DNA of 64,000 bases from an uncultured Verrucomicrobiae bacterium. GTDB taxonomy: Bacteria; Verrucomicrobiota; Verrucomicrobiia; Limisphaerales; JAFGQR01. This document shows positions 4,855-36,032 of the stretch, one piece after another. The translations under genes and the position numbers were made by a program. The notes beneath the pieces are model-generated. The model worked only from the letters and a program-made list of their open reading frames with translations. It searched no databases and was not told the DNA's origin. The stretch is from positions 1 through 64,000 of the forward strand of contig CAWBHS010000038.1 in NCBI GenBank assembly GCA_963788655.1. The letters are read 5' to 3'. Each line of letters opens with the position of its first letter. Within the stretch, counting starts at the first letter, position 1.

Positions 4855-4985
4855 CCGCGACGTTTCAACGCCCCCGCCCGGCAGAACCGCACCCATAAGC
4901 TGGCTACCAAGCGGCCAAAGAATTTGAATCTTGCGGAAATTTGGCACGTCTAGTTAGCATTGACGATGTTGAATCAAAGAACGAT

Positions 4986-5522
4986 ATGACCATTCTGAAA
5001 ACTGTCTCGAGAACCCGCAGGTCGGCGCCCACCGCCGGTTTTACCCTCATTGAAGTCTTGCTGGTGATTGTCATCATCCTCTTGCTGGCCGGGGCGCTGG
5101 TGGTGTTTGTGCTGCCGCAGCAGGAAGGCGCGGAGAAGAACACGACCCGGTTAAAACTAAACAATATCGCCACCGCTCTGGATACCTACCGGCTCAACAT
5201 CGGCCATTATCCCACGGAGGACGAAGGTGGGCTGGAAGCGCTGTTGAAGAAACCGAGTTTTGAGAATGAGCGCCTGGCCGAAAAATGGATGGGACCCTAT
5301 CTCAAACCGGGTACGAAGTTGGAAGACTCCTGGAACAACAAACTTGAATACGAAGTGGTGGACCGGACGCTCGAAACCGAAAACGTGGGTTTGCCGTATC
5401 GGCTGTATTCCATCGGTCCGGACGGCCAACCCGACACCGATGACGACATCAAGTATGCCACGGAAGTCGAAACCGACACCATGGGCACCGGCTCGGCTTC
5501 GGACAGTTCGACGACCAAGTAA
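4986..5522 (+). CDS. gspG: Type II secretion major pseudopilin
   Basis: G|FTLIEVL prepilin motif; ALDTYRLNIGHYPT, WMGPYL, DSWNN, YSIGPDGQPDTDDDI T2SSG signature. Confidence 0.92.
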   Translation: MTILKTVSRTRRSAPTAGFTLIEVLLVIVIILLLAGALVVFVLPQQEGAEKNTTRLKLNNIATALDTYRLNIGHYPTEDEGGLEALLKKPSFENERLAEKWMGPYLKPGTKLEDSWNNKLEYEVVDRTLETENVGLPYRLYSIGPDGQPDTDDDIKYATEVETDTMGTGSASDSSTTK

Positions 5523-6300: not shown

Positions 6301-6972
6301 ATGAAACTTTCCTTCCTCAGCCGTAACGCTTCACTTGGCGGACCAGTGACGGGACGATTCGGCGAGGTAGGGCAGGCGTCTCGCCGGTCTCGAATAGCCG
6401 CGGGCTTTCCTCACCTTTTCGTGACGCTGAGAAAGTCCGGGCGATGCAACACAACTCCTTGGTTTACTTCCGTTCGGGACCGGCGGGACGCCTGTCCTAC
6501 TGAATCGTTACGGCTCGGCAGCAAACTTTCGTTCCGGTCGCGCGAGCGCGGGGCCGTACTGCTGGAAGTCGTCCTGGCGCTGATTCTTTTTGTGGCCGCT
6601 GCCGCCGTGATCACCGGCGGTATGCATGCTTCCCTGGATTCGGTGGACCGGATGCGGTTGAACACGCACGCCGCCGATCTGGCCATCTCCGTGATCTCGG
6701 AATTGCAACTGGGTATCCGCGGCCTCGATCTGACCGGTCCCGAACCGTTCGAGCCGCCTTACGAAAACTGGACGTGGGAAATTGTGATCACATCCGATGA
6801 GGTCCCGGTAGTTGGGAGTGGATTGGCGATCGAGGAAGAATCGCCGCTAACTCAAGTGGAAGTGATCATTCGGCACCAGGATCCGCCCCTGACGTACCGT
6901 TTGTCGCAGCTTATCCGGCCGGGTGCGGTGAGCCCGCCCACGGAAGAATCGGAACTTGAAACGACGTACTGA
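6301..6972 (+). CDS. gspI: GspI-like minor pseudopilin with an 84-aa leader containing an in-frame repeat
   Basis: RERG|AVLLEVVLAL prepilin-like site at 6553; operon position. Confidence 0.7.
   Translation: MKLSFLSRNASLGGPVTGRFGEVGQASRRSRIAAGFPHLFVTLRKSGRCNTTPWFTSVRDRRDACPTESLRLGSKLSFRSRERGAVLLEVVLALILFVAAAAVITGGMHASLDSVDRMRLNTHAADLAISVISELQLGIRGLDLTGPEPFEPPYENWTWEIVITSDEVPVVGSGLAIEEESPLTQVEVIIRHQDPPLTYRLSQLIRPGAVSPPTEESELETTY
6319..6515. repeat. REPIN/MITE (GTAG-GACAGGCG family) inside the GspI leader
   Basis: Outer IR AGCCGTAACG/CGTTACGGCT; inner GTAGGGCAGGCGTCTCGCC...CGGGACGCCTGTCCTAC; homologous copy at 36957-37184. Confidence 0.85.
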
Positions 6973-12851: not shown

Positions 12852-15800
12852 ATGCCCCGACCCATTCATTTAAGCTGTGATCTCAATCTCATGAACGGAC
12901 TGAAACGATTCTGCAACGGACTGGTTTGCATGCTGGCCGCCGCCACGGTGGCGATGGCCCAGGATGCTTCCACGAATTCACCTCCCGCAACCCCGGTCCC
13001 CGCGAGCGCCCCGGCCGCCAGTGCGCCCGTTACGAACGTGCCTCCGGCTGCCACCAATGCTGCGAGTGCCGCACCGACGACAGCGCCCGCCACCAATGCC
13101 GTGTCGCCGGCTACGGAGGAAGTGTCTCCCGCCCCCGCCCCGGCGCCCGCCAAACCGACTGCGGCCGAGCGCAACATCCGGTTCCAGTTCGACGGCATGT
13201 CCTACAGCGAAGTGCTGGAGCGATTTGCGCAAATGGCGCACAAACCATTGCTCACCGAAACGAAGGTCGAAGGCACGCTCACGTACAACGATCCCAAGCC
13301 GTACACCTACCCCGAGGCGTTCGACACGTTGAACCTGATGCTCTCGATGAAGGGCCTGATGCTGGTGGAAACGGACCATTATCTGCGGCTGGTGCCGTTC
13401 AAGGAACTGCCGCAAATGCCCCTCAAAATCCTGCACGGCCTCGAACACGACGGCGATGTTCGCCCCGGCGAGGTGGTCACGGTGGTCTTGAGCTTGAAGA
13501 ATCTCGAAGCCGGCGAAGTTTCCCAATCGATCACGCCGATGCTCTCCAGCGCCGGCTCGGTGGCACCTCTTTCGCGCGGGCAGGGCCTGATCTTGACCGA
13601 CCACCTGGCCAACATTCAGCGCATCCGCTATTTGCTCGACCAGATCGACACTGAATCAGCCGTCACGCGGCAAATGAAGACCTACACGCTGGTCCATGCC
13701 TCCGGCGCGATTGTGGCCGATTTGATCAACAAAACTTTCGGCGCCAGCACCGCCCCGAAGCGCACCCGGCACAATCCCAAGAATTCCAGCCTCGATGTGC
13801 TGCCGCCCGATCCGGCGGACTACGTCACTTCGATCTACGACGAGGCCTCGCGGACGATGGTCCTCTGGGGTCCGACCGACCGCGTGACCCTCGCTGAGGA
13901 ACTGATCAACAAATTCGAGCAACAAGGCGGCCTGGGCGGCGACATCCGAATATATTATCCACAGGATCTCAAACTCGAGGAACTGGCCCAAATGATCCGC
14001 CAGGCCATTCCCGGCGTGGCGGCGCCGAATGAAAACGCCCCGACCAAGGCCCGCTTGATTCCCGATGCCAGCCAGGACCGGCTGATTGTGGTGGCGCCGA
14101 TTCCCGGGCAATTAGAGTCCATTGATAGTTTCATCAACCAGGTGGACAAGGGCGTGAAATCCACCGGCAACAACCCGGGACGCATCCGTTCGGAAACCAT
14201 TCAAGTGACCAAGGTCTTCCGGCCCCGCACCGCCGAGCCGGCGACCGTTGCCAAGATTCTCACCGAAGCCCTGACGCGTCGCCTGCCATCCGGCGCAACC
14301 GCTACCAGTGCCAATGTCAGTGTCGAGCCCGGCAGTCAGAGCGTGGTGGTCAGCGGCTCGCCGTCCGACGTTCAAACCGCCATCAGCGTCCTCGCTCAAC
14401 TCGAGGACGGCACGGTGCCGACCGAAGCGCTGCAAACGAAGTTCTTCGAAGTGGGCAGCGCCGCCGAGGCTAAACGCCTGGAAACACTGGTCCAACAACT
14501 CTATCGCAACCAAGTCGGCGAGCCCGCCAACAAACTGCCCTCCGCCGCCAAGATTGTGGCTGAACCGGACTCAGGCCGGTTGATTGTTACCGCCACACCG
14601 GAGCACCTCACCTTGATTGAAAAACTGCTCAAAGATCTCCAGTCCGAGCCCACCGCGACGCAACCGCGCAATCTGGAGATTTTGACGCTGGACCACACGC
14701 AGGTGAACGACGTGATCAAGAACCTGACCAGCCTGGTGACCGAGCGGATGAGCGAAAAACGGTTCCAGGATTTGCCCAAGCCCGTGATCACGCCCGACGC
14801 GGCCAACAACCGATTGCTGGTGACCGCGACCGCGGAACAGCTTAAGGAAATCAAGTCCGTGCTGCAGATCCTCGACCTCGAACCGGCGCTGGTGCCGCGT
14901 CAGACCCGGATTTTTAAACTGGAAAATCTCCGGGCCGACACCGGCCTGGCCAGCTTCAACAACCTGCTCAACGAGCGTCTGACCGATAAACGTTTCGTCA
15001 ACCAGCCCAAACCCACCATTACGCCGGACGTTCCCAACAACCGTCTGTTGGTCACCGCTTCAGCGGATCAACTCAAGGAAATCGAGGAAGTGCTGCAATT
15101 GCTGGACGTCGCGCCCGAGCTGGCCAAGCGCGACCTGCACGTGGTCACGCTTAAGCACCTGCGCGTCGATACCGGGCTGACCAGCATCAACAACCTGGTC
15201 AACGAACGGATGGCCGATAAACGCTTCGACCGGGTGCCCAAGCCGACGCTCGTGCCCGACGCGCCCAACAACCGGCTGGTCATCACCGCCACGGACGAGC
15301 AGTTCCAGGAGATCGAACAAGTCATCAACCTCCTCGACGTGGTGCCCGAAACGGCGAAGCGGGAGATGAGAGTCATTGCCATTCAGTCCAAGTCCGCCGG
15401 CGAAATCATCAGCTTGACCACGCAACTGATGACGCAGTTGGTCGAGGCGCAGCCCAATCCGCAACTCGCGCCCAAGCTCATCCCCGATCCGTCCGGCCGG
15501 CAAATCATCGCGCTAGCGACGCCCAGCGATTTGCAGCGCCTCGAAACGTTTATTCAACAACTCGACACCGCTGCCGCCACGTCCGCAGCGCGGCAATTCA
15601 AAGCGGTGGAATTGTTTAGCCGTAATGCCACTGAGTTGACGCCGCTCGTCCAGCAACTGTATCAGGAACAGTTGAAAGGCCTGGCCGAACCCGCCGGCGG
15701 CGCCGCCACATTGCTGGCCGACACCAAGAACAATCGCATCATGGTCAGCGGATCAGAAGCGGAGATCGCCCGCGCCGAGGCTCTCATTCGCCAGTTGGAT

Positions 15801-18800
15801 CCGGAGAGCCTGAAGGGCACCAAAGAGGAAACGCGGGTGGTCCGCTTGAAATCGGCGCTGGCCGCCGAACTGGCGGCGTTGGTCGAGAAAAGTCTCAATG
15901 CCCAGTCGCAGCAGATCAAGGTGCTCGTGGACGCGCGCAGCAACAGCCTCGTGCTCACCGGCGATTCGGCCGCGGTCGAAGCCGCGTCCAAGGTCATCGA
16001 CCAACTCGACACCCGCTCAGACATGACGCCGCGCGAAATTCGGATCATGGATCTGCGCTCCGGCGATGCCACCACCGTGGCGCCAATGGTCACCAGCCTG
16101 TTCACCGAAATGATCAAGGACAAGCGCGGCCCGGAGTATGTGGCGCAGGCCAAGATCGTGGCGGATACCTCGGCGAACCGCCTGATTGTCACCGGTCCGA
16201 AGCCGGAGCTTGAGATGGTTGAGGAATTGGTCAAACAATTGGACGAAACCCCGGGACAATCCAGCGGCGCGCGTGTCTTCAAGCTCAATTCCGCCGACGC
16301 CGGCGTGTTGGCGCCCATTGTTTCCAACGCCATGATGCGGTTCGACGTGCGCGGACAGCCGATCCGCAAAGTGACCGTCTCCGCCGACCCGAAATCCAAC
16401 AGCCTGATCGTGACCGGCTCGCGGACGGATTTACAGGACGCGGCGGTGATCATTGAAGGACTGGACGGCGACTCCGGCGGCTTCCTGGCCAGCGATCAAA
16501 CGCGCCAGCTCAAAGTCATCAAAGTCAACACGGACGATCCGGCCCAGTTGGCGCAATTGGCGTTGCAGGTGTTCACCGCGCAAAACCTCGGCCGCAATTT
16601 GACCAATGTCCTCACCATCACCCCCGAGCCGGTCGGCAAGCGGCTGATTGTGATGGCGCCCGCCACGTTGATGCCGCAGGTCGAAACGGTCATCAAAACG
16701 TTGGACCTGCCCACGGAACAGGAACCACGTGGGTTGCACCCGGTGGATTTGAAAAATGCCCGGGCGCAGGAACTCATGACCTCGGTCAACCGGATCTATG
16801 CCGAGCAAACGCAGGGCAAGCCCGGCAAACCGGCCACGATTTATCCGGACACCGCCGGCAAGCGGCTCATGGTTTTTGGCACCCAGGAACAAGCGGCCGC
16901 CATTCAGCAGATCGTCGAAGCACTGGAAAGCCAGGCGAAGACCCCGCGGGAGACCAAGGTGTTTGATTTCGGGTTGCCGACCGAAGCACAACGACTTATG
17001 CCGTTGATCCAGCAGCTCTACAAAGACCAACTGGCCAACGATCCCACCGCCGGTCCCGCTGACGCGCAACTGATCACGGATCCGCGTTCTGGTCGGGTCA
17101 TTGTGTCGGCGCGGACGGATGACTTGAAACGCATCGAGGACATCGTGGCGACGCTCCAGCCGATCACGGACACCAACCTGTTGACCCGCGAAACGAAAGT
17201 CTTCGACTTGGGCCGGCTGGCCGAGGCGCAACGGGTGTTGCCGCTGGTCCAGCAACTGTACCGCGACCGGCTCACGAATGACCCTGCCGCCGGAGCGCCG
17301 GACGCGCAAATGATCAGTGATGGCCGCACCGGCCGCATCATTGTTTCGGCGCGCCAGGACCAATTGCAACTCATTGAAAATATTTTGACCGACTTGAAGC
17401 CGATGACGGATACCAATCAGGTGACGCGCGCCACGAGGTCGTTCGAGGTCGGCACGCCGGCGAATGTCGAGCGGTTGCTTCCGTTGGTGCAAAAGCTTTA
17501 TACGGATCAGTGGAAGGACCGGAGCGAGGAAGATCCGGCGGATGCACAAATCATGGGCGATCCTCGCGCGGGCCGGATTATCGCCACGGGCAAAACCAAT
17601 CACCTGAAGCAGATCGAAGCCATCCTCCAGCAACTCGGGGTAAACGTCAGCGGTGACTCGAACGCACCGCCCAGCAAATTGAAAACTGCCGAACGCGAAA
17701 CGCGCATCTTTGACCTCACTTCGGCCAACGCCGTCGAACTGGCCACCACGGTGCGGACACTTTACCTCGACCAGGTCAAAAGCCGGTTGGGCTCGCTTCA
17801 GCCGGATACGCTCATCGTTCCCGACGTCAATGCCAACCGGCTGATTGTGGTCGCCGAGCCGATTGAGCTCGCGGCAGTTGAAGACATCGTCCAGAAGCTC
17901 GACAAGGTGAGCGCCCAGAGCGCCTCGGCCCGCGTGTTCAAGTTGAAGTCGGCCGACCCGACGAAGGTCAGCGAAATTCTGCAAAGTGCGCTGGTTACCT
18001 ACGACTCGTATGGCCGGCCGCGGAAACGCGTCACCATTAGTGTCGATGCCGCCACCCGTACGATCATCGCCACGGGCGACGCCAAGGAATTGCAGGCGGC
18101 TTCGGTGATTATTGAACAGCTCGATTCGTCGCTCGGGACTCAGACGGACCGGCAAATGAAGGTTGTTTCGTTGAAGAACGTTCGCGCCAGCGAGCTATAC
18201 ACCAAGGTGCAACAACTGTATCAGGACCAGGTTAAAAGCCGTCCGGAACTGGGCATTGCCGACGCCCTCGTGATGCCCGACGCCACCAGCAATCAGCTCA
18301 TTCTGGCCGGCAGCACCGCGCAACTCGAACTGATCGAAAAGATCATCAACGACCTGCAAGCCGCGCAAGCCAACCAGGCGCCGCGCGAAACCAAGATGAT
18401 CGACATCGGCCCCGCCGATGAAGTCACGCGTCTCCTGCCGTTGGTGCAGCAACTCTATCGCGAACAATGGCGCGACCAGGATCCGAGCGATCCGCCGGAC
18501 GCGCAGATCATACCCGATACCAAGAATGGCCGCTTCATTGTCACCGCGCGAACGAATCACATCGCCGCCATCGAGGACATTGTGAAGAAGGTGCAAGGTG
18601 ACCGGACGGCGACCGCCGACCTGCGCGAAACCCGCGTCTATGATTTGACATCCGCCACGGCCATCGAACTGGCCACCACGGTGCGTTCGTTGTATTTGGA
18701 GCAGGCCAAGGCGCGGCCGGGTTCGGCGGCCAGCGACACCATCATTCAGCCCGATCCCGGCGCCAACCGACTGATTGTGTGCGGCACAACCAACGAATTG

Positions 18801-21800
18801 GCGATTGTGGAAGACATTATCACCAAGCTCGACAAGGTCAGCGCGCAAAGCGCCTCGGCCCGCGTGTTCAAGTTGAAGTCGGCGGACCCGACAAAGGTCA
18901 GCGAGATTCTGCAATCGGCCTTGGTGACGTATGACTCGTATGGCCGCCCGCGGAAACGGGTTACCATCAGTGTCGATGCCAATACGCGCACCATCATTGC
19001 CACGGGCGACGCCAAGGAATTGCAGGCGGCGTCGGTGATTATTGAACAACTCGACTCCTCGCTCGGGACTCAGACGGACCGGCAAATGAAGGTTGTTTCG
19101 TTGAAGAACGTTCGCGCCAGCGAGCTATACACCAAGGTGCAACAACTGTATCAGGACCAGGTTAAAAGCCGTCCGGAACTGGGCATTGCCGATGCCCTCG
19201 TGATGCCCGACGCCACCAGCAATCAGCTCATTCTGGCCGGCAGCTCCGCGCAACTCGACTTGATCGAAAAAATCATCAACGATCTGCAAGCCGCGCAAGC
19301 CAACCAGGCGCCGCGCGAAACGAAGATGATCGACATCGGCCCCGCCGACGAAGTCACGCGTCTCCTGCCGTTGGTGCAGCAACTCTACCAGGAACAATGG
19401 CGGGACCAGGCACCGAGCGATCCGGCCGACGCGCAGATCATGCCGGACACGAAGAATGGCCGGTTCATCATCACCGCCCGCACGAATCACATTGCCGCCA
19501 TTGAGGACATTGTGAAGAAAGTCCAAGGCGACCGCGCAGCCACGGCGGAATTGCGTGAGACGCGCGTCTATGATCTGACGGCCGCCACCGCCGTCGAACT
19601 GGCGGCCACGGTGCGGTCGTTGTATTTGGAGCAGGCCAAGGCGCGTCCGGGTTCGACCGCCAGTGAAACCATCATTCAACCCGATCCCGGCGCCAACCGG
19701 CTGGTCGTTTGCGCGACGACGAACGAGTTGGCGATGGTCGAGGACATCATCACCAAGCTCGACAAGGTCAGCACCCAAAGCGCTTCCGCCCGCGTGTTCA
19801 AGTTGAAGTCGGCCGACCCGACGAAGGTCAGCGAAATTTTGCAAAGTGCGCTGGTCACCTATGACTCGTATGGCCGGCCGCGGAAACGCGTCACCATCAG
19901 TGTCGATGCCGCCACCCGCACGATCATCGCCACGGGCGACGCCAAAGAATTGCAGGCGGCTTCGGTCATTATCGAACAACTCGATTCTTCGCTTGGGGTG
20001 CAGGCCGAACGCCAGATGAAAGTGGTGCCGTTGAAGAAGGCGCACGCGACCGAATTGGTCAGCCAAGTGCAGCAATTGTATCAGGACCGCGTCAAGAGCA
20101 ATCCCGAATTGGGCCTCGCCGACGCGTTGATTTTGCCTGATGCCACGAGCAATCAACTTATTCTAGCCGGCACGGAACCGCAGGTGAAGGTGATCGAAGA
20201 CATCGTGAGCCAGCTCGTCGAACACGCCGCCGCGCAAGGTCCGCGCGAAACCAAGTTCTTCGAGATCGGGCAACCGGAGGAAGTGCGCCGCGTTCAGGCG
20301 CTGGTGCAGCAATTGTACACGGACGAGTGGAAGGACAAACAACCGCAGGATCCGGCCGACGCCCAAATCCTGCCCGACGAACAGAACGGGCGTCTGATTG
20401 TCACTGCCCGCCAGGAGCATTTGGCGGCCATCGAAAAGATCATTACGCAAATCCACCCGGAGCGCGCCGAAGCCGCTGCCATCGAAACAAAGGTTTACGA
20501 TTTGCAGGCCACGTCCGCTGCGGAGTTGGCGACGACCGTCAAAACGTTGTACCAGGAACAGCTCAAATCGCGTCCCAGTGCTCCCGTCAGCCAGGCCACC
20601 ATTCTGCCGGACCTCACCGCCAATCGACTGATCGTTTCGGCAACGACGAATGAACTGGCGGCGCTGGACGCCATCATCAAGAAGCTCGATGACGTCAGTC
20701 TCCAATCCGGCCGCACCCGGGTGTTCAAATTAAAGTCCGCCGAAGCCGAACAGGTCGCGTCGGTGCTGTCCACCGCGTTTACCGAGATGAGCCGTTATGG
20801 CCGTCCCCTGCCGCGCGTGAGCGTCGGGGCTGACCGCCAGAATAATTTGTTGATTGTTTCCGGCGAACCCAAGGACCTCCAGGCGGTGGCGACGATCATC
20901 GAGGAAATGGATTCCGCGATCACGCGCGGCAAGCGTTCCATGCGGATCTTTGCCTTGAAGACCGGTCTCGCCACCGAAGTTTCCAGCCGGGTGGAGCAGC
21001 TTTACAAGGATCAGGTTAAAGGCAGTGCGGAGGGCGGCACAGCGGACGCGTTGATCATGGGCGACGATGTCAGCAACCGGCTGATTGTCACCGCCAGCGA
21101 CGCGCACATGAAGGTGATCGAGAGCATCGTCACCCAACTCCAGGAAGCCGGCGAAGGCACGGGACGGCAGACGCGGGTGTTAATGCTCGAACGCAATTCA
21201 GCCAGTTCCATCGCCGCCATGATGTCCCAGTTGTTCTGGCGCGAGACGCGGAGCACCGATCCCGGCCAGCGCCTGGTTATCACCGCTTCCCCGGATGATC
21301 GCACGCTGCTGGTGGATGCCACCGGCCAGATTCTGGAAAAGGTCGAGCAGCTAGTGAAGACGCTCGACAGCGATGAAGCCAAAGGCGCGTTGGAAGTCCG
21401 CACCTATCAAATACCGGATGGCAACGCCATGCTGCTGGCGCAGGGTTTGTCGCGGATGTTCATGGAACGGGGGGGCGGCGCTGGCGGGCCGGCGCCACGG
21501 TTTGAAGGCGATCCCACATCGAACATCCTTTTGGTCGGCGCCACCAAAGACCAGTTTACGAAAATCGACAAGTTGATCGAAGAATTGAAGGCCTCGGTGT
21601 CCGTGACCAACGAGATTCGCACCTTTGTATTGAAGAACGGCGATCCGGAACAAGTGTCCCAAGTCCTGGAGGACATGTTGTCCGACGGCGGGTCGTCGCG
21701 CGGTTCGGGCGGATATCGCGGACCGGGATCCTACATGTATCGCATGCGTAGCCGCGGTGGTGCCAGTCTCAACGAAGTTCGTGTGACACCGGCGACCTCG

Positions 21801-24800
21801 CTCAACGCCGTAGTCGTGCAGGGGCCGCCGGAGAAGCTGGTGATCGCCGAACAATTGGTCAAGACGCTGGACAGCGAGGAAGGTCCGGGCAAATGGGAAG
21901 TGCGCACCTACGAGGCGCCCGAAGGCACGGCGTTCAACCTCGCCCAGAGTCTCCAGCGTCTCTTTGCCGAACGCGGCGAACGGCCCCGGCGGGGCATGGA
22001 ACCGCGGTTCGAAGCCGACGCCGGCGGCAGCGTGCTGATGGTCGGCGCCACCAAAGACCAGTTCGAACAGATCGACAAATTGATCACGGAATTGAAAACG
22101 TCCGTGTCGGTCACCAACGAAATGCGCACGTTCGTGCTCAAGAACGGCGATCCCGAACAAATCGCTAACGTGCTGGAAGAAATGTTGACCGGCGCATCCG
22201 GTTCCTCGCGGCGCTTTGGCAACCCCGGCCGGCCGGGCAACTACCGCTATGGCCGTTCCGGCAGTTCCAGCAGCGAAGTCCGCATCGCGCCGGCGCCTTC
22301 TTTGAACGCCATTGTCGTGCAGGGACCGCCGGACAAACTGGCGCTGGCCGAACAATTGGTCCAATCGTTGGACAGCGAGGAAGGTCCGGGCAAATGGGAG
22401 GTGCGCACGTATCAGGCGCCCGAAGGCAGCGCGGTGACTCTGTCTCAAAGCCTGCAACGCCTCTTTACCGAACGGCGCGGGCCGAACACCGTCGGCCTGC
22501 AACCGCGCTTCGAAGCGGACGCCAACGCGGACGTCATCATGGTGGGCGCGACCAAGGATCAATTCGAACAAATCAGCAAGCTCATCACGGAATTGCAGAG
22601 TTCGATATCGGTCACGAACGAGATGCGCACGTTCGTGTTGAAGAATGCCGATCCCGAACAGGTCGCCAGCGTACTCGAAGAAATGTTGGCCGGTGGTGCG
22701 GGGGGCTCCCGCCGCGGTGGTGGTGGCAGGGCTTACGGTGATGCCAACGGTTCTCCCTTTCGCTATGGCCGCTCGCGCGCCACTGGCCCCAGCAATGTCC
22801 AGGTGGCGGCGGCACCTTCGTTGAAAGCGGTGGTCGTTCAGGGGCCGCCGGACAAACTGGTTTTGGCCGAGCAACTGGTCAGATCGTTGGACAGTGAGGA
22901 AGGCCCCGGCAAATGGGAGGTGCGCACGTACCCGGCGCCCGAGGGCAGCGCGATGAACCTCGCGCAGAGCCTGCAACGGTTGTTCACCGAACGCGGCGGG
23001 CCAACCCGCACCGGCCTGGAGCCGCGGTTTGAAGCGGACATGAATTCGAATGTCATCATGGTGGGCGCAACGAAAGATCAGTTCACCCAGATCGATAAGC
23101 TGGTGGAAGAAGTGCTGAAGTCGGCCGCCCCCACGAGTGAGATTCGCACGTTCATCTTGAAGTTTGCCGAGCCGGAACAGATTTCCAACGTGCTCTCCGA
23201 CATGTTGTCCGGCACTGGCGGTTCTTCCCGTTCCACCACTTATTATCCGGGGGCGTCGTATCGCTATGCGCGTATGGGCGGTGCCGCCACCCGCGAAGTG
23301 CATGTTTCGCCCGCGCCCGCGCTGAACGCCGTGGTGGTGCAGGGTCCGCCGGACAAAATCGTGGAAGCGGAGAAACTGATCGCGACGCTCGACAAGGAAG
23401 ACGCCGAAGGCCAGAACGTCATCCAGGCCGTTCACCTGGCCAAAGGCCGGGCGGAGGACATTGCCGAGGCGCTGTCACAAAACATCGCCGACCGCACCAG
23501 CCGCATGCAAGGCGCGCCCAAGACGCGCATGCAGCGTGTGAACGTAACCGCCGTGGGCGGTGCCGACAGCCTGCTCATCAGTGGTCCCGGGGACGCGGTC
23601 AAAGAAGTGTTGTCCATCATCCGCGAACTGGACCAGGAGAGCAAAGGCGACGAAATCGAAGTGCGGATTTACAAACTGGAAAACGGCGAAGCCAAGGAGA
23701 TCTCGACCGTGATCCAACAACTCCTGCTCAACGTCACCCGCGCCACGCCGCGCAGTAAGTCCCTGGCGCGTAATGTTCCGGCATCGGTGTCCGTGGACGA
23801 AAAATCCAACAGCCTGATCATTTCCGGCACGGCGGCGCACTTCAGCGTGGTCGAGAAAGTCCTGCCCACGCTGGACAGAATTCCCGAACGCGCCGACCGC
23901 GACATTGACATCGTGTGGCTGCAAAACGCCCAGGCCATGGACGTGGCGTTCACATTGAATTCCGCTTTTGAAGCGCGCGACGAAAAAGACCGCCCGGTCA
24001 TCGAATCGGACATCATGGCCAACACGATCACGATCATTGGGAAGAAGGCCGACATCGCGCACATCCAGGACATGATCGCCCGCATGGACGAACCGTCGAA
24101 CGACAACTCGGTGCAAGTCCGGTTGCGGGCGATCACCAGCGTGCCGGCGGAGCAAATGATCAAAATGTTGACGAACATTTATCCGCAGATGGTCTTCGGC
24201 CAAATCCGGGTGGTGGACAAACTCAAGCCGCAGCCGATGAAACCCGAAGCGGCCCGGAAGCCCGCCGGCACGAACCAACCGCCAGGGGCTCCGGCGCTGC
24301 CGACCAGCCCTACCAACCGCCGCCGGTGCCGCCGGAAGTGGTCATCGCGCTCGACAAAGAAGCCAACGCGCTGATTCTCTCCGGTCCTACGCGGGAATTG
24401 GATCAGGTGGAGCGGATTATCTCCGAACTGACCTTCAACTTCATTACCAGCGATGCCGAGTTCCGGCTCTATCCGCTCAAGGAAGCCGACCCGGTGGTGG
24501 TGGCGCGGACCTTGACCGAACTGTTCCGCGAGCCGGCCGTTCAAGTGCAGCAACAACCAAAGCAAGGCCAACCGCAGCAGCAAAACCAGCCGCCTCGCGC
24601 GGTGGTGCCCAAGCCCAAGCTGACGGTCGTGGCCGAACCGCGCACCCGTAGCGTCATCGTGCGCGCCAAACCCTCGGATTTCCCGCTGGTGGAGGGCCTC
24701 ATCAAACAGCTCGACGCCGCGGACCTGATGGCGCAATTGGACTTTCGCGTGGTGCTCCTCACCAATGCCCAGCCCGAAAAGGTCGTGGGCCTGGTGCAGC

Positions 24801-27800
24801 AAATGGTCAAGCAACTGGGCGAAGTCCGGCCCGGTGACCCGCTCACGGTCACGGTCGATACCCGTTCGCGCGGCTTGCTGCTGGTCGCGCGTCCCAATGT
24901 GTTGGATCGCATCGAGCAAATGGTGCGCGCGCTGGACGTGCCTTCGGAATATGAACAGGCCGAAGTGCTGGTGGTGTCGCTCAAGAAGGCCAGCGCGCCG
25001 CAATTGGCCAGTGTACCTGCAGAACATGCTCAAGCCCGGCACCGAGGGGCAACTCACGCCGGAAGCCCGCGAACTCCAGGAACAAGTGCGGAAGTTGAGA
25101 ATCAAGAATGACGCCGGCGAGGAAGTCGTCCTGGACCTGACCAAGCCCATCAAGATTTTGCCCGATCCACAAACCACCGGCACTGGCGGTAACCGGCTTA
25201 TCCTTACCTCGACGCCGGACAACCTCAAAGCCCTGCAAGCCGTCGTGACCATGATGGACAGCGTGCCGGTGCAGGAAGGCGTGGACGTGAAACTCATTCA
25301 CCTGGCCTTTGCCGACGCCAACACGGTGGCCCAGACGTTGACCACCATTTTTACTCAGGGCAAACAACTGGCCACCGGCCCCATTCCGAATGCCCAACCG
25401 GAAAGCGAGTCCGGCAAAGCCCTGGTCAACCCGCTCAACGTGGCCATCGATCCGCGGTCCAATACGCTCATCCTCAGCGGCCAGAAGGAGAGCCTCGACC
25501 TGGCGCTCAAAGTGGTCGATGACCTGGACCGCGAACTGGACCGGTTCATGACCGACGTGAAACTGTTCCGGCTGAAGCACGCCTCGGCCACCCGCTTGCT
25601 GCCGTTGTTGCAATCCGTGTTTGCCGAAGGGCCGGCGGTGCCCGGTTCCGAAGGTTTGAACACCATGGTAACCCGGTTGCGCACGGCGGTGGAGCAAGGC
25701 GCTCCGATTACCACCCTGCAACCCAAGACGCGCGCCGCACTGGTGGTTCAGGCCGACGACATTGCCAACATTCTCATCGTGGCCGCCCGCACGGATGCCA
25801 TGCCCTTGATCGAGGAAGTGATCAATCAGTTGGATATTCCCGCCGCCTCCGGCATGGACACTATCCGCATCTACCCGCTCAACCATGCCGACGCGAGCGC
25901 CATTCAGAAAATCATCACCGACCTCCACACCGGACCGCGGGCCGCCTCGATCCGCACGGAAGACCGGCCGACGGTTACGGTCGATCAACGCAGCAATTCC
26001 TTGATTGTTTCCGGCAATGAAAAAGCCTTCGGCATTATCGAAGGCTTGCTCAAAAAGTTGGACCAGGAACTGCCGTTTGAATTGCGCGACATTCGCATCG
26101 TGGCGCTCGAAAACGCGGACGCCACGGTTGTGGCCGGCACGTTACAGCAACTGATGGATGCCCGCGTAACGCGCCGCGCCGCATTGGACCAGCAACAGGC
26201 GGATCTGCTCAAGGTGATCATTGTGGCCGATCCGCGCAGCAACAGCCTGCTCGTTGGCGGCTCGAAAGACAGTTACGAATTGGTCACCTCGCTGGCCCAG
26301 CAATTGGACCAGGCGGCGCCGGCGTTGAGCGGACGCATCCGGTTGGTGCCGCTGCAATTCGGCGACGCGCGGTCCATCGCCATTGCGCTGGGCCAACTCT
26401 TCACGCAACGGTATTCCATGGCCCGCACGCCAGACGTGCAGCGTAGCCGGCCAGTCATTGTGGCCGACCCGCGCAGCAACAGTTTGTTGGTGGCTGCCAG
26501 TGTGGATGACAACCAGGCTATTGATGAACTGCTCAAGAAGCTCGACCAGAAATTAGACGACCCGTCGATGGTGATCACCGTCGTGGGCTTGCAGCACAAT
26601 GATTCCACCCGCGTCGCGGCTACGTTGGAATCGGTTTTTCAAGCTCGGTTGCGCGCGCGTCGAGTGCCGGGCCAGACGCCGTCGCCACAGGACATGGTGA
26701 ACGTCGAGCCGGAGTCGTTGAACAACTCGCTGATCATCTACGCGAGCAAAGAGAACCAGGAACTCATCAAGGGTTTGTTGGAAAAGATTGACGTGGAACC
26801 CGTGGCCCTCGGCGGGATCATTCAGACCTTTACGCTGCAATTCGCCGATGCTCAGCGCGTGGCCACCATGCTGCAGTCTTTGGTGACGCAGGGACTCTAT
26901 CGTCCCGGCGCTTCCTCTCCGCGCGGTCCCGGCGCCGCCCAGCGCAACGCTTTGGCGGTCACGGTCGATCCCCGCAGCAACACGTTGATTGTGTCCGCCA
27001 GTCCGGAAAACATGCTGGTCATCAAGGAAATCATCAATCGGGTGGACACCCAGGACATGGCGGAAACGGGCAATGTGCGCTTGTACCAACTCAAGAAGGC
27101 CCGGGCGAGCAGCCTGGCCACCGTGCTCGAACAGTTCTTTCGCTCGAAGCGCGCCGCGGAATCCACCGGCATCAACGCGGCCGAACGCACCGTGCCGGTT
27201 TCAGTCATTCCCGACGACCGCAGCAACACCTTGCTGGTCACCGGGGGCAAGGAAAGCTTCGATGTTCTCGAACGGATCATCAAGCAACTGGACGGCGATG
27301 AGATTTTCGCGCGGATGAATTTCAAGGTGTTCCCGTTGAAGCAAGCCACCGCCACCAAGTTGCAATCCACCTTGCAGCAAATCTTCGCCAACCGCCCACC
27401 GCGCGTCCGCGGCGAACCTCTCGATCCCATCACCATCGTGGCCGACTCGTGGGTTAACGGGCTGATTGTGGGGGCTTCGACCGAAGATTTGGAAATGGTG
27501 GGCTCGCTGATTGAGCAACTCGACAGTGAGCCGACGGAAGGCGGGTTGTCCGTCCAGGTGTTGCCCCTGGCCAAAGCCAACGCCACCCGCGTGGCGCAAA
27601 CCATCCAGGGCCTGTTCCGCGAAGGCACGGCCGGCGCCGCCATGCCCGTGTCCGTCAGCGCCGACGAGCGCATCAATGCCATCGTCGTCTCCGCCGGCGA
27701 AGCGGACGCCAAACGCATTTCGGACTTGGTGAAGAAACTGGACACCGACCAGGTGGCCAAAGTGGCCGAGATTAAAATCTTCCCGCTCCAATATGCCCGG

Positions 27801-29585
27801 GCCGATTCCCTGGCCACCATCCTCAACCAGGCCCTGAATCAGAAGCCCACGCCGTTGACCGAGCAAAGCCCCAATGCCCAATCGCTGCTCCAGTTTGTCG
27901 CGCGCACCCAGGACGGCAAAGCGTTGGTTACCGCCGCGCTGCGGGAAGCCGTCTTGATCACGCCGGACGTGCGGATGAATGCGCTGATCGTTTCCGGCCC
28001 CGTCGATTACATGGGCTTGCTGGAACAAATCATCACCCGCCTGGATTCCAGTTCGCCGCAAGTGGCCAAGATCAAGGTGTTCCAATTGCTGAATGCCGAC
28101 GCCCGCCAAATGTCCGATGTGCTGAGCACGCTCTTCCGCATGCAGCAAGCCGCCACCGCCAACCAGCGATCCATCGAATACACGCTCGTCAAATCCGATT
28201 TCAGCGGTCTCGATATGTTCGGCCCGGACCAGGAACTGGCTTCGGCCACGCTGGGCACCGCGGAACAAAGCGCGCTGACCGTGACGGTGGATCCGCGCAC
28301 CAACAGCCTGCTGGTCGGCGGCACCGAACACTATGTCGAGCTGGTTTCCGAGATTGTGACCGCGCTCGACGCGAATCCCGGGCAGGAACGGCATTCGGAG
28401 GTTTATCGCTTGAAAAACGCGCAGGCCCTCGGGGTGGCAACGGCGGTCCGCAGTTTCCTGGACCAGGAACGCCAGCGGGTCACCCAAGTCCTGGGTGCCG
28501 ATGCGGTCGGCACGGCCCAGCGGTTGCTCGAGCAGGAAGTCGCCATCGTGGCCGAGGAAGTCAGCAACACCCTGTTGGTTTCGGCCAACCCGCGTTATTT
28601 TACCCAGGTCAAGGCGCTCATCGAACAATTGGATCAACCCCAGCCGCAGGTGCTCATCCAGGTGTTATTGGCCGAAGTGACGCTGGATTCGACCACGGAA
28701 CTGGGTGTGGAATGGAGTTATGCCGGCGCCAAGAGCGGTAACAATTTTCTCACCGGCACCGACTTTGGCGTGGCCCAGGAATTGCAGACCTTCGGCGGTT
28801 ACTCGGCCGCGGTGACCGGTAGCGATTATACGTTCCTGTTGCGGGCGCTGAAAAATGATGGGCGCCTGGAAGTCCTGAGCCGCCCGCAAATCTTGACCGC
28901 CGATAACAAACCGGCGTCCATCAACATTGGCCAACGCGTCCCGCTCATCACCGATAGCCAGATCACGCCCCAAGGCGGCTCGGTCACCACATTCCGCTAT
29001 GAAGACGTCGGTATCAACCTGACCGTGACGCCGCGCATCAGCCCGGACGGCCTGGTCAGCATGGAAGTCTCCACCACGAACAGCGCCATCAGCAGTTCGA
29101 CCGTCCAGGTCGGCTCGTCGGCCAATGTCCCGATCATCAACTCGCGCCGGGCCACCACGTCCCTCAGCGTGCAAAGCGGCCAAACTATTATCATTGGCGG
29201 GCTCATTTCCACGACGGATGACGAGCGCGTGAAGAAAATGCCCTTGCTCGGCGATATTCCCCTGATCGGCGCGCTGTTTCGCAGCTCCCGCCGGGCGACC
29301 GACCGGAAAGAATTGTTGATCTTGCTGACCCCCCAGGTGTTGGCCAGTCGCACCAACTCGGTGGGCGTGGACGCGGAAAAACTGACGCGGGAGAACTTGG
29401 ATCGTTCGACGATCAAAGATCAAATCAAACGGGATACGTTACAAAAACAACTGCTGGATCCGCTGTTCCCGACGATCAAGGAAGAGAAGCCACAACCGAC
29501 CCCGGGACCGCAATCCAAAAAACCCGCGGTTGATCCGGTTGATGCCGCCGTCCCGATCCGTTACGAAACGCCCGACCCATCATGA
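12852..29585 (+). CDS. gspD: Giant GspD-type secretin (~5,570 aa), split into three ORFs by two compensating indels (~24320 and ~25010)
   Basis: Signal peptide, N0 (IRFQFDG..GTLTY), ~62 KH-like N repeats (L..A.A..V...L....D..SN.LIV), C-terminal QVLIQVLLAEV, LSRPQILTADNKPASINIG, KMPLLGDIPLIGALFRS; first and last ORFs share one frame. Confidence 0.9.
17901..20690 (+). repeat. Intragenic tandem repeat, 930-bp (310-aa, four N-domain) period
   Basis: GACAAGGT.AGC...CGCGTGTTCAAGTTGAAGTCGGC at 17901, 18831 and 19761; first two copies nearly identical in DNA. Confidence 0.92.
21370..23400 (+). repeat. Intragenic tandem repeat of a two-N-domain unit (~500-520 bp, four copies)
   Basis: GACAG.GAGGAAGG.CC.GGCAAATGGGA at 21870, 22371 and 22890; VVQGPP.KL motif four times. 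Confidence 0.88.
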
Positions 29586-30166
29586 CCGGAATTCTACCGA
29601 TGGCGCGATTATTGACCACGACTCTCCTCCACTTTAGCCGCCGCATCGGATCGCGGTTCTCCGGGGGCATGCTGCGTTGTGTTCTCATCGGGTTGGCGGT
29701 TGCCTTGCTGACCGGATGCGCTTCCAGCCGTCAGGGAACCACGAGTGGCAACGCCGCACCCAACTCGCCCATTGACCGCATTCACATCATCAGCCAGCCG
29801 GTGGCCATCAACTTCGACCAACTTCCCGGGGCGGACGGTTTCGGCGTTACCCTGTTTGCCACGACCGCCCGCGAGCCTAAATCTGTGGCTATTCCCGAGG
29901 GCAAACTGGAAATCTTGATGTATGACGGTCTGCTCAAAGTAAGGGAATTTGCCACGACCAAGCCCCTGAAAACCTGGACCTACACCGCCGAAGAACTCCG
30001 GGCGTATGCTGCCAACGGCTCCATTGGCGTTGGGTACCGCCTGACTCCTCAATGGGGTGACCAGGTGCCGACGCAAAACCGCATCACCGTCCTGGCCCGC
30101 TACACGTCTCCGACCGGGGCGGTTCGCTATTCCGAACCCACCGTCATCTCCCTGTTGGCCGGGTGA
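29582..30166 (+). CDS. Lipoprotein coupled to the secretin gene (candidate pilotin); start may be 29669
   Basis: LAVALLTG|C lipobox; ATGA overlap with the secretin stop. Confidence 0.7.
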   Translation: MTGILPMARLLTTTLLHFSRRIGSRFSGGMLRCVLIGLAVALLTGCASSRQGTTSGNAAPNSPIDRIHIISQPVAINFDQLPGADGFGVTLFATTAREPKSVAIPEGKLEILMYDGLLKVREFATTKPLKTWTYTAEELRAYAANGSIGVGYRLTPQWGDQVPTQNRITVLARYTSPTGAVRYSEPTVISLLAG

Positions 30167-30667: not shown

Positions 30668-30689
30668 TTAACGTTTGCAGGATTGGTTT

Positions 30690-32213
30690 ATGTATTTTCA
30701 GAACTACGATGTAGGAGCGTTCTTCGATGAAATGTTCGATGAGCACGGGCAGCCCCGCCCGGTTGCTCAGCCATTGATCGCCACCATCGACAACCTTCCG
30801 GACGGCGAGCTGTTAATCCGGCAGCAGGCGGCCGAGCGGGCCCTGCTGCAACTGGGAATCACTTTCAATGTGTATGGCGAAGGCGCGGGCGTGGAGAAGA
30901 TATTTCCCTTCGACCTCCTGCCGCGCATTGTTTCTGAAGCGGAATGGGGACGGATCGATCGCGGATTGAAGCAGCGCATTCATACGCTCAATCTATTCAT
31001 CAACGACCTGTATCACGAACAGCGCGTCATCAAAGACGGCGTCGTGCCCGAGGAAATTGTCCTTTCCTCGAAAGCGTACCGGCGGGAATGCATCGGATTG
31101 AAGCCGCCACAAGGTATCTGGTGCCACATCACCGGCACGGATCTGGTGCGGCACCACGACGGTCAGATTTACGTGCTCGAAGACAATTTGCGTTGCCCCT
31201 CGGGGGTGTCCTACGTGCTGGAAAACCGCCGCGTCATGAAGAGCATGTTTCCTCAAGTCTTCGCGGCGATGAAGGTTCGTCCGGTGGCCGATTATCCCAG
31301 CCACCTCCGCGACGTGCTCGATTACCTGGCGCCCGCGGAGGTGACTTCGCCGCACGTCGTCTTGCTGACCCCGGGCATTTACAACTCCGCCTACTTCGAG
31401 CATTCCTTCCTCGCCCAGCAGATGGGTATCGAACTGGTCGAAGGCCGCGACCTGGTGGTCCATGACGGTTACGTATGGATGCGCACCACCAAGGGCTTCG
31501 AGCGCGTGGACGTGATTTATCGGCGGATCGACGATGATTTTCTGGACCCGCGGGTTTTTCGTCCTGATTCCATGCTCGGGGTGCCGGGCTTGATGGAAGT
31601 GTATCAGCAGGGCCACGTGGCCCTGGCCAACGCGCCGGGCAATGGCGTGGCGGATGACAAAGTGGTTTATGCCTATGTGCCGCGCCTGGTGAAGTATTAC
31701 CTCGATGAAGACATCGTGTTGCCGAACGTTCCCACGTACATCTGCGCGGACGCCAAGGATCTGCAATACGTGTTGGAGCATCTTCCCGAACTGGTGGTCA
31801 AAGCCGCCCATGAATCCGGTGGCTACGGCATGCTCGTCGGGCCGCAGGCCACCCACGCCCAATGCGCCGAGTTCGCCGAACGCGTCAAGGCCAACCCGCG
31901 CAACTACATCGCCCAACCCACGCTGGGCTTGTCACGGGTGCCGACCATTGTGGACAATCATTTCGAGGGCCGGCACGTGGATTTGCGTCCGTACATTCTT
32001 TACGGCGAAGACATCTTCGTATTGCCCGGCGGCCTGACCCGCGTGGCGTTGAAGCAAGGTTCGCTGGTGGTCAACTCCTCCCAGGGCGGCGGCAGTAAGG
32101 ACACCTGGGTGCTGGCCGACCATGCCGCGAGCGGCCAACCAAATCCAAAGGCTGAAATCCGAAATCCGAAAGCAAACCGAAAACCGAATGAAATTCAAAG
32201 GCAGCAGATCTGA
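30690..32213 (+). CDS. Circularly permuted type 2 ATP-grasp protein
   Basis: GITFNVY, VLEDNLRCPSGVSY, LTPGIYNSAYFEH, VDVIYRRIDD, VNSSQGGGSKDTWV. Confidence 0.95.
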   Translation: MYFQNYDVGAFFDEMFDEHGQPRPVAQPLIATIDNLPDGELLIRQQAAERALLQLGITFNVYGEGAGVEKIFPFDLLPRIVSEAEWGRIDRGLKQRIHTLNLFINDLYHEQRVIKDGVVPEEIVLSSKAYRRECIGLKPPQGIWCHITGTDLVRHHDGQIYVLEDNLRCPSGVSYVLENRRVMKSMFPQVFAAMKVRPVADYPSHLRDVLDYLAPAEVTSPHVVLLTPGIYNSAYFEHSFLAQQMGIELVEGRDLVVHDGYVWMRTTKGFERVDVIYRRIDDDFLDPRVFRPDSMLGVPGLMEVYQQGHVALANAPGNGVADDKVVYAYVPRLVKYYLDEDIVLPNVPTYICADAKDLQYVLEHLPELVVKAAHESGGYGMLVGPQATHAQCAEFAERVKANPRNYIAQPTLGLSRVPTIVDNHFEGRHVDLRPYILYGEDIFVLPGGLTRVALKQGSLVVNSSQGGGSKDTWVLADHAASGQPNPKAEIRNPKANRKPNEIQRQQI

Positions 32214-32330
32214 AGTAGCGATCCTTCCAACACGTCACTTCAACCGCTGGGCAGCGGGGAATGGAAGCGCATGGTTCCCGGAACTGGATTTCGGTCCTTT
32301 GGTTCTCGGCCTTCATTCCCGTTTATTCCC

Positions 32331-33317
32331 ATGCTAAGTCGGGTTGCTGAATCAATCTATTGGATGAGCCGTTATGTGGAGCGGGCCGAAAACGTGGCCC
32401 GTTTCCTGGAAGTCAATTTCCTGCTGATGCTGGATGCGCCGGACGGGTTCGACCAGCAATGGAAGCCCTTGGTCAACACCACCGGCGATGCCGACGACTT
32501 TGCCCAACGCTATGGGAGGGCGCACCAGGAAAACGTCATCCAGTTCCTGACGTTCGACGCCCAGAATCCGAACTCGATCCTGTCGTGTCTGCGGGCCGCG
32601 CGCGAAAGTGCGCGTACCGTGCGGGAGATCATTTCCTCGGACATGTGGCTGCAGTTGAACAAGGCCTACATCATGGCGAACCATGCGGCCAATAATCCGC
32701 GTACCCTGGCGTCACAACACGATTTTCTAACCGAAGTCAAAATGGCCAGCCACCTGTTTTCCGGGGTGACCAATGCGACCATGACGCACGAGGAAGCCTG
32801 GCATTTCTGCCGGTTGGGTCGCATGCTCGAACGGGCCGACAAAACCTCCCGCATCCTGGATGTTAAATACTTCTACCTGCTGCGCAACGTGGACGACGTG
32901 GGCACGCCCTTTGATGAGTTGCAATGGGCGGCGGTCCTGCGGTCCGCCAGCGCCCTCGAGATGTACCGCAAGCGGTACGGCCGCATTTCCCCGACCGGCG
33001 TGGTGGATTTTCTCTTGTTGGACCGGTTGTTCCCGCGGGCCATCCAGTATTGCTTGATGGCGGCGCGCGATTCGCTCCACGCCATTTCCGGCACGCCCCT
33101 GGGCGCCTTCCGCTTTCCGCACGAGCGGTTGCTCGGACAGCTTTGTTCGGACCTCTGGTACACGGCGGTGCAGGAAATCATCGACGGCGGGCTGCACGAA
33201 TACGTGGATGAACTCCAAACGCAAATGAACCAAATCGGTGCCGGCATCTTCGATACTTTTTTTGCGCTCAAGAAACCCTCCTCCACCAAGGATCGCTCCA
33301 GCCTGGCGTTGACTTGA
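32331..33317 (+). CDS. Alpha-E domain protein
   Basis: MLSRVAESIYWMSRYVERAEN, LGRMLERADKTSRILDVK, FPRAI. Confidence 0.95.
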   Translation: MLSRVAESIYWMSRYVERAENVARFLEVNFLLMLDAPDGFDQQWKPLVNTTGDADDFAQRYGRAHQENVIQFLTFDAQNPNSILSCLRAARESARTVREIISSDMWLQLNKAYIMANHAANNPRTLASQHDFLTEVKMASHLFSGVTNATMTHEEAWHFCRLGRMLERADKTSRILDVKYFYLLRNVDDVGTPFDELQWAAVLRSASALEMYRKRYGRISPTGVVDFLLLDRLFPRAIQYCLMAARDSLHAISGTPLGAFRFPHERLLGQLCSDLWYTAVQEIIDGGLHEYVDELQTQMNQIGAGIFDTFFALKKPSSTKDRSSLALT

Positions 33318-33337
33318 ACTCCCGGGAAACACTTCGT

Positions 33338-33420
33338 TCTTGCGCTTGCTCCGGCTCATGGTCTTGATCTCTCGGCGGGCTTGAGCCAGCGTTCGAATAT
33401 GAAACCGAGCAAGCGCAAGA
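33338..33420. repeat. Perfect 14-bp inverted repeat element between operon genes
   Basis: TCTTGCGCTTGCTC ... GAGCAAGCGCAAGA. Confidence 0.7.
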
Positions 33421-33497
33421 GTTGATATGCGATTGGAGATTATGGTTGCCGCCTGTGGGCTGGTTGAACGGTATCTGAAGTTGATGTCGCACAGATC

Positions 33498-36017: not shown

Positions 36018-36032
36018 TTGTCAGATTGGCGT

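Follow-up and report, generated by a model that had tools for sequence, protein, structure and literature searches.

Secretins are among the best-studied outer-membrane machines, and their periplasmic part, in which the N-domains form rings and the first of these domains, N0, makes contact with the platform in the inner membrane, is considered to require three to six rings. The canonical type II secretion system (T2SS) secretin, GspD, has the N0-N3 architecture and is about 650 amino acids (aa) long. Here we analyze a 64,000-nucleotide (nt) stretch of DNA (hereinafter, the window) from an uncultured Verrucomicrobiae bacterium (contig CAWBHS010000038.1, assembly GCA_963788655.1), in which positions 12852-29585 of the + strand make up a single 16.7-kb secretin frame of 5,577 codons that, when read through two changes of frame, would encode a protein of ~604 kDa. 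The explanation of this gene that we hold to be somewhat better than an even bet is that of an expanded GspD-type secretin, part of a T2SS- or type IV filament-like machine, in which the array of N-domains forms a long conduit and the frame changes are likely errors.

The closest systems of known structure are the T2SS secretins, namely GspD of Escherichia coli K12 (5wq7), PulD of Klebsiella pneumoniae (6hcg), the Vibrio cholerae protein (5wq8) and Aeromonas hydrophila ExeD (6i1x), with which the window protein shares the barrel, the collinear N0-N1-N2 arrangement and the presence of the pseudopilin genes G-K in the same operon. The solved chains contain 3 N-domains in 524-657 aa, as opposed to 62 in the 5,577 codons of the window protein; furthermore, the pieces of the latter score below the cut-off of the GspD model TIGR02517, its platform genes, which resemble PilM and PilO/P, are no clear counterparts of GspL/M/C, and its partner lipoprotein is predicted to be a beta-sandwich of no known family. 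A survey in TCDB gives, in the section consulted, a length of 555 +/- 151 aa for the secretin family (PMC4827864). The excerpted text of another study describes N-domains as partners of GspC that build a periplasm-spanning tunnel, with XcpQ N0-N2 self-assembling into a ring 80 Å high (PMC5646246). PilQ of Thermus thermophilus resembles the window protein in the possession of extra beta-alpha-beta-beta-alpha N-domains, which in PilQ form stacked rings spanning a wide periplasm, and is our working model; in the excerpts cited, this protein of 757 residues, with six stacked rings (N0-N5) in a 350 Å complex, is called one of the largest characterized (PMC5745081). The window protein exceeds PilQ tenfold in its number of N-domains, belongs to a T2SS-type operon and has no solved structure. 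From the same phylum, the Akkermansia secretin Amuc_1098 and the PilM-like Amuc_1101 (NF042912, NF045709) give weak matches, 80.9 bits for the barrel and 26 bits for the PilM-like neighbor, far below the respective cut-offs of 750 and 650, and the Amuc_1098 model, with 805 positions, is of ordinary size. The giant secretins of metagenome-assembled genomes (MAGs), e.g., MBN2508403.1, have the same collinear architecture, and related loci have the same PilO/P-like and lipoprotein flanks; compared with MBN2508403.1, the window copy has 61 rather than 55 N-domains by a hidden Markov model (HMM) and carries the two frame changes.

Architecture and reading frame

By all profile comparisons taken together, the total content of the protein is N0, 62 further N-domains and a GspD-type barrel (Table 1). 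Pfam Secretin_N yields 52 stretches that pass individually (36, 3 and 13 in parts A, B and C of the gene, which are delimited by the frame changes). An HMM of our own, iterated on the gene itself, counts 61 N-domains: parts A, B and C hold 44, 2 and 13 complete ones, respectively, and the breaks cut through another 2, whose N-terminal halves are detected weakly. The remaining domain, N1, at approximately aa 200-270, was nearly missed by this HMM (i-E 0.013) and is supplied by the alignment of aa 111-388 to positions 1-259 of TIGR02517, which correspond to N0-N1-N2. By Pfam alone, N0, which in GspD is the docking site for GspC/PilP, is sub-threshold, and many homologs carry a precomputed PF21305 assignment. 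The barrel match covers positions 1-168 of the 169 in the profile, against a cut-off of 27.5 bits. The original prediction, made from the letters of the window before any database search, had posited N0, about 62 N repeats counted by hand and a canonical secretin barrel in a giant protein of ~5,570 aa; all of this holds, at about ten times the normal size, and the HMMER counts identify the repeats as Secretin_N-like.

TIGR02517 is the best model for both ends of the protein, with 126.9 bits for the N-terminal 616 aa and 297.5 bits for the C-terminal 522 aa; the equivalog cut-off of 351.35 bits is not reached by these pieces, which were scored singly because of the breaks. The PilQ model TIGR02515 yields 205 bits, less than the GspD model and less than its own cut-off of 284, and the Pfam output for the secretin contains no AMIN domain. 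Thus, by best model, the protein is a GspD-type rather than a PilQ-type secretin. Consistent with this assignment, the barrel together with the last N-domain aligns over ~390 residues to Escherichia coli GspD (5wq7, E 9.6e-45), PulD (6hcg) is matched at E 1.3e-64 by a profile of 77 orthologs (A3), and the PDB sequence matches to PulD, GspD, ExeD and XcpQ span E 1e-64 to 1e-55.

As it stands, the gene is broken. In the list of open reading frames (ORFs), the frame-0 ORF extends from ATG 12852 to 24374, stop included (3,840 aa); a frame-2 stretch is open over 23972-25111, and frame 0 reopens over 24729-29585, with the stop at 29583-29585. In tblastn comparisons, all seven homologs tested (P0002-P0007 and P0123, the latter being MBN2508403.1) are collinear with the window across both break points, as expected of one ancestral gene with cancelling -1 and +1 changes, which is what had been predicted. 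In particular, residue 3339 of P0123 maps to 24314 in frame 0, residues 3348-3579 map to 24344-25015 in frame 2 with 72% identity, and residues 3580-5121 map to 25017-29555 in frame 0 with 73% identity; it is this residue mapping that places the two breaks as given in Table 1. At the second break, the homologs read ...QLASVLQ.ML... (also given as ...QLASVLQGML...). P0123 itself is intact and passes uninterrupted through both break points.

We consider the two frame changes more likely to be local assembly or sequencing errors than real mutations. A local consensus error is favored because the changes are 0.7 kb apart and of opposite sign, and the 224 codons between them are free of stops and as conserved as the flanks, with the near-equal identities to P0123 given above; there is no other lesion across the 16.7 kb. 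Several circumstances nevertheless weigh against the favored explanation. Besides the broken frame itself, the gene call in the source annotation (P0122) is a truncated protein of 3,814 aa with a start 26 codons downstream of 12852, the truncation being due to the two single-base changes; and a third frame change in the window, in a transposase gene (see below), fits either error-prone assembly or ordinary decay. The most viable alternative is that the family is genuine whereas the window copy is a recent pseudogene, so that both changes are real and translation ends at 24374, with a 3,840-aa product that lacks the barrel. We assign this scenario a substantial probability, albeit well short of an even one, because neither frame change lies within a long homopolymer, the other genes of the window look intact over their full Pfam profiles, with no sign of indel errors being frequent overall, and interruptions occasionally occur in other MAGs. 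Specifically, 2 of 80 related loci are interrupted once each, L067 by a frameshift at ~6168-6180 and L046 by an in-frame stop at ~4334, so that breaks in the giant secretin gene recur in assemblies. The frame changes are also present in the public gene call, and the nearby insertion sequence (IS) element and group II intron attest to mobile-element activity. Against a pseudogene stand the absence of further lesions, the undamaged and conserved stretch between the breaks and the improbability that two indels would arise independently, with opposite signs, within a distance of 0.7 kb (by a rough estimate, ~8% for the distance x 50% for the sign), an arrangement readily expected from a local consensus problem.

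We rejected programmed frameshifting as an explanation: this would require a -1 event and, 0.7 kb downstream, a +1 event, no X XXY YYZ heptamer is seen at the first break, and all homologs are single-frame.

The third frame change splits an ISAzo13-type DDE transposase gene (PF07592, 54385-55313, + strand) between two frames, with profile positions 6-87 in 54385-54672 and positions 85-308 in 54618-55313. It adjoins an A6 run at ~54615-54620, and decay, slippage or sequencing error are all possible. Beside this IS element lies a group II intron (span 56142-58079), with Rfam RF02005 D1-D4 at 56142-56394 (+ strand, 74 bits) and, 3' of it, a reverse transcriptase ORF (PF00078) at 56778-58079 (+ strand).

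The family of giant secretins and its repeat array

The window protein belongs to a very large family. A barrel search with its last 515 residues among proteins of 2,651-5,000 aa yielded 926 clusters at E<=0.001 from 2,716 candidates scored, the best 120 of which are 3,028-4,934 aa long (median, 3,982). An exhaustive HMMER search of 50%-identity representatives yielded 4,153 proteins at E<=1e-30; among the best 150 of these, 112 are at least 3,000 aa long and 6 at least 5,000 aa, with the longest at 5,532 aa, and most of the short ones are N-terminally truncated fragments. In a scan of GTDB species genomes with the barrel alignment, 472 of 531 pattern matches encode relatives; a scan of these genomes with the N-terminal 616 aa gave 40 pattern matches and no confirmed relative. 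The best 80 of the 472 loci come from MAGs titled Verrucomicrobia, Limisphaerales or Pedosphaera, apart from a few that are obviously mislabelled; their identity to the window protein reaches 69% over the end block (68% in the GTDB scan list), and in 71 of the 80 the reading frame is open to the 5' edge of the locus, over up to ~12 kb. By its relatives, the host of the window is a member of the Limisphaerales, Verrucomicrobiota. The closest relative, P0123, has 5,121 aa and 55 domains; its identity to the window protein is 78% in the first 620 residues and 73% in the last 1,540.

Unrelated organism titles (Akkermansia muciniphila, Klebsiella, Bifidobacterium, Cyanophyceae, Kapaibacterium, Methylomirabilota) are attached to L005, L009, L012, L044, L045, L052, L057, L074 and other loci that encode the same Verrucomicrobia-type giant secretin, with up to 68% identity; these probably represent mislabelled or mis-binned MAGs.

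In the databases, the relatives are named GspD, 'secretin N-terminal domain-containing protein' or 'hypothetical protein', and no cultured isolate is among the 10 large relatives that were looked up. A full-text literature search, provisional in that it covered few subscription journals, returned no description of secretins with many N-domains. Within that coverage, the original prediction holds in that no functional description is known at this scale; it also mentioned that long secretins occur in the Planctomycetes-Verrucomicrobia-Chlamydiae (PVC) group, and intact relatives of the window protein reach 5,532 aa. The notion of an undescribed system has to be modified: no description was found, but the locus is not singular, being one, possibly broken, member of a very large family already labelled GspD. 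The family is visible in databases and apparently unstudied.

The array itself is ordered. Domains 1-4 and 42-61 of the window protein pair with their positional counterparts in P0123, P0019 and P0031, relatives with 55, 46 and 42 N-domains, far above any other domain (e.g., 372 vs 53); because of this one-to-one match, both ends of the array, the N-terminal domains as well as the last 20, can be considered old and individually conserved. Linkers of 7-9 aa account for ~76% of the ~11,200 junctions in 302 relatives retrieved. In an alignment of a six-domain block, about half of the positions with at least 90% conservation are peculiar to a single domain, and conservation of the linkers is close to that of the domains (0.67 vs 0.72). 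The number of domains is a different matter. Among 124 complete-looking relatives, it ranges from 19 to 56 and drifts as the barrels diverge, with a median difference of 4-6 domains at less than 70% barrel identity. An exact molecular ruler is unlikely because of this drift, and this idea is weakened even though there is a mode at 42 domains and at 3,900-3,999 aa (70 and 71 of the 302 relatives, respectively, a biased sample). As judged from these comparisons, it is the long array that is kept and not the exact number.

Quaternary structure and length of the array

How could such an array be deployed? Under the explanation that we favor, 12-15 copies of the protein would form the barrel, as in all solved secretins, with the N-domain arrays hanging into the periplasm and N0, at the far end, docking on the inner-membrane platform, for which PilM/GspL-like and PilO/PilP-like proteins are encoded just upstream. 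The array would then constitute a very long stacked-ring or hose-like conduit within which the pseudopilus would work and which would bridge a wide or variable periplasm. The paryphoplasm of strain Ellin514 is, in our reading, an enlarged periplasm. In the passages cited, it is described as lying between the two membranes of this strain, a member of subdivision 3 of the phylum (PMC2647929). If the extra N-domains stack as rings, which we infer by analogy, and each ring rises ~2.7 nm, as in XcpQ N0-N2, the conduit would be ~165 nm long or more, and longer at the Thermus spacing. A bolder version of this scenario, which we regard as doubtful, is that, in Verrucomicrobia of the Limisphaerales type, ~40-60 secretin rings stack into a homo-oligomeric tube or extensible hose, ~110-250 nm in length, in which the number of rings is tuned to the envelope by tandem duplication and which carries a pseudopilus or pilus from a platform in the inner membrane through an enlarged, variable periplasm to the outer membrane. 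For a 15-mer of the window protein, such a tube would amount to ~9 MDa. The original prediction had likewise put a stacked conduit at more than 100 nm; a prostheca core or a folded-back cage, which it also raised, would be speculative.

Several observations speak against this picture. An AlphaFold2 monomer model of a six-domain block (25839-27311, with 67 positional orthologs) folds as six consecutive beta-alpha-beta-beta-alpha domains with a mean pLDDT (predicted local distance difference test score) of 73, and its pTM (predicted template modeling score) is 0.37, i.e., there is no fixed geometry between the domains. The best PDB matches of the block in Foldseek are the T2SS secretins ExeD, EpsD, GspD, PulD and XcpQ N0-N2, and this holds only at the level of single domains, the whole block giving TM scores of 0.1-0.2 and a root-mean-square deviation of 35-40 Å. 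Measured against a small coccus, a straight tube of 165-250 nm would take up much of the cell, and the literature search returned no measured width of the periplasm in this lineage. The drift in domain number, described above, and the lack of genes for GspE, GspF and the prepilin peptidase (GspO) in the 64-kb window belong on the same side.

These findings lend weight to a serious rival, under which the gene is functional in kind and the ~60 extra N-domains, rather than stacking as rings, make up 12-15 flexible tethers in the manner of beads on a string, or else a mesh that is folded or can collapse; either would link the pore with the platform of the inner membrane or with the cell wall and accommodate a gap of variable width. 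Confident single domains with no fixed mutual arrangement, structural similarity to solved secretins that is good for single domains only and a domain number that varies widely between relatives are all in keeping with tethers. Furthermore, the N0-N2 rings are often flexible in solved T2SS secretins, with considerable flexibility of N0-N1-N2 relative to N3/C reported in the excerpted text of PMC5646246. Pointing the other way are the very uniform short linkers, which are as conserved as the domains, the domain-specific conservation and the one-to-one positional orthology, and for these reasons a defined quaternary structure fits better than a generic spacer. As to the structural model, a monomer prediction from 68 rather similar sequences could hardly reveal a geometry confined to the oligomer. 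Taken together, these considerations make tethers possible and, in our judgment, on the unlikely side.

Whichever way the domains are arranged, a family present in hundreds of environmental Verrucomicrobiota lineages that keeps 19-58 ordered, individually conserved N-domains under purifying selection implies an unexplored structural solution, either a very long conduit or a new coupling of the two membranes, and either outcome bears on the long-argued organization of the PVC envelope. The stacked tube, if real, would far surpass every known secretion conduit in length and would report, at the molecular level, on the PVC cell plan.

The length of the array poses a separate problem, given that the 61 domains detected by the HMM exceed the maximum of 58 among the 302 relatives, and that the window copy is the longest among the matches listed. 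The middle of the array contains tandem units of two and four domains (Table 1). Four-domain units 1 and 2 are 89.5% identical at the nucleotide level and 93.9% at the protein level, with a longest exact match of 134 nt and 67 synonymous against 19 non-synonymous codon differences, and unit 3 is ~62% identical. Sequence comparison shows the middle of the array to have expanded by tandem duplication of two- and four-domain units that are kept under purifying selection. Tandem Repeats Finder reported no repeats in the gene because these units, of 507-930 nt, exceed the longest period searched, 500 nt. The excess of domains and the tandem units might be taken to indicate that the extreme length is an assembly artefact, with repeat units mis-joined or duplicated and a true gene closer to the family mode of ~3,950 aa. 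This we consider quite improbable: the units have diverged far enough to be told apart, which excludes copies of a single set of reads, their differences are mostly synonymous, the closest relative has 55 domains including the same eight-domain block 34-41, and intact relatives of 5,054-5,532 aa exist.

The weakest proposal, suggested by the ORF calls as they stand and by the annotation of the first piece alone in the source, is that the locus encodes two or three separate proteins, among them an N-domain protein of 3,840 aa in the periplasm and a secretin of 1,606 aa whose start is ATG 24765; it can hardly be entertained given that the 24765 ORF begins with 84 codons that are in a different frame from every homolog, rich in Arg, Trp and Cys and devoid of a signal peptide, that the conserved frame-2 stretch would go untranslated, and that all seven homologs are a single protein at this point and 71 of the 80 loci have one frame open to the edge.

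Gene neighborhood

Table 1. Coordinates of the secretin gene features and of the flanking genes (window positions)
Feature	Position	Strand	Basis
Major pseudopilin GspG	4941..5522	+	PF08334 T2SSG 5e-21; TIGR01710 100.2 bits, above cut-off 88.85
GspH-like minor pseudopilin, 244 aa	5538..6272	+	PF12019 1.1e-6; TIGR01708 1.3e-8, below cut-off
GspI-like minor pseudopilin (weak)	6301..6972	+	No Pfam match; TIGR01707 E 0.0011, below cut-off; located between the H and J genes
GspJ-like minor pseudopilin, 415 aa	6956..8203	+	PF11612 T2SSJ 9.2e-5, below gathering score; NF006453/TIGR01711 weak
GspK minor pseudopilin, 521 aa	8200..9765	+	PF21687 T2SSK_1st 8.6e-14; NF037980 2.1e-25, below cut-off
PilM/GspL-like assembly-platform protein, 589 aa	9758..11527	+	PF11104 PilM_2 6.2e-16; TIGR01175 2.9e-17
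Candidate PilO/PilP-like (GspM/GspC-like) protein, 337 aa	11524..12537	+	No Pfam/NCBIfam match; Atlas feature matches 0.90-0.92 to PilO/PilP clusters
Secretin part A (frame 0): probable signal peptide, linker, N0, N1, 44 complete N-domains, first half of another	12852..24314	+	
Probable Sec signal peptide, aa 1-36	12852..12959	+	By eye from translation: K/R n-region, hydrophobic core, AMA|QD
N0 domain, aa 113-176	13188..13379	+	PF21305 22.6 bits, cut-off 27; TIGR02517 alignment
Three 930-nt (four-domain) tandem units	17928..20717	+	Repeat search, domain comparison
Domains 34-41, four two-domain units (~507 nt)	21396..23393	+	Present in P0123; no counterparts in P0019, P0031
Frame change 1, net -1	24315..24343	+	Pro-rich loop of an N-domain; P0123 alignment
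Secretin part B (frame 2): half N-domain, two complete, half of next	24344..25015	+	Pfam Secretin_N 5.5e-28, 3 stretches
Frame change 2, one extra base	25016	+	Between Val and Leu codons of conserved helix; P0123 3579|3580 to 25015|25017
Secretin part C, N-domain section: half N-domain and 13 complete	25017..28634	+	Pfam, own HMM
Secretin beta-barrel PF00263	28845..29342	+	175 bits, E 1.3e-51
C-terminal tail, conserved motif KRDxLQxxLLDPLxP, then stop	29343..29585	+	Consensus of alignment A3, 77 sequences
Conserved lipoprotein of no known family, 194 aa, lipobox LTGC	29582..30166	+	Start overlaps secretin stop

The pseudopilin and platform genes upstream of the secretin are in canonical order, GspG alone scoring above the cut-off cited for it, with weaker matches for H-K and the platform genes. 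A homolog of the PilO/P-like gene is found directly 5' of the secretin in all seven related loci where the region is visible, and a PilM/L-like homolog lies upstream in all three loci that reach that far. Promoter and terminator scans near both ends of the gene returned no signal in excess of that expected from shuffled sequence.

The minor pseudopilins (5538-9765, + strand) are all much longer than the respective NCBIfam models, 244 vs 169 for H, 223 vs 101 for I, 415 vs 192 for J and 521 vs 307 for K, and the predicted tip complex of the pseudopilus may have been enlarged along with the secretin.

Downstream, a homolog of the lipoprotein is encoded just 3' of the secretin in 74 of the 80 loci. 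This protein has no Pfam, NCBIfam or PDB sequence match, and Atlas gives only hypothetical PVC clusters. Its AlphaFold2 model is a beta-sandwich (pLDDT 80.4) for which Foldseek retrieves only generic Ig/FN3-like matches, none at E<=0.001, and no pilotin family is matched. In pilotin-dependent secretins, a cognate outer-membrane lipoprotein binds a C-terminal S-domain, and the tail of the window secretin carries the conserved motif given in Table 1; our guess would be that of an accessory, pilotin-like or PilP-like candidate partner of the secretin.

Farther along the window, two circularly permuted ATP-grasp proteins, Alpha-E domains and a transglutaminase-like protein are encoded at 30675-36932 (+ strand); the ATP-grasp genes, the first two of this cluster, adjoin the secretin in none of the 80 related loci. 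A MacB-type exporter occupies 44307-49138 (- strand), with two FtsX/MacB_PCD permeases, an ABC ATPase (47217-48149) and an HlyD-family membrane-fusion protein. Finally, genes for CheA (788 aa) and FliP are located at the end of the window (60908-63928, - strand), and because of these the organism probably has flagellar motility and chemotaxis.

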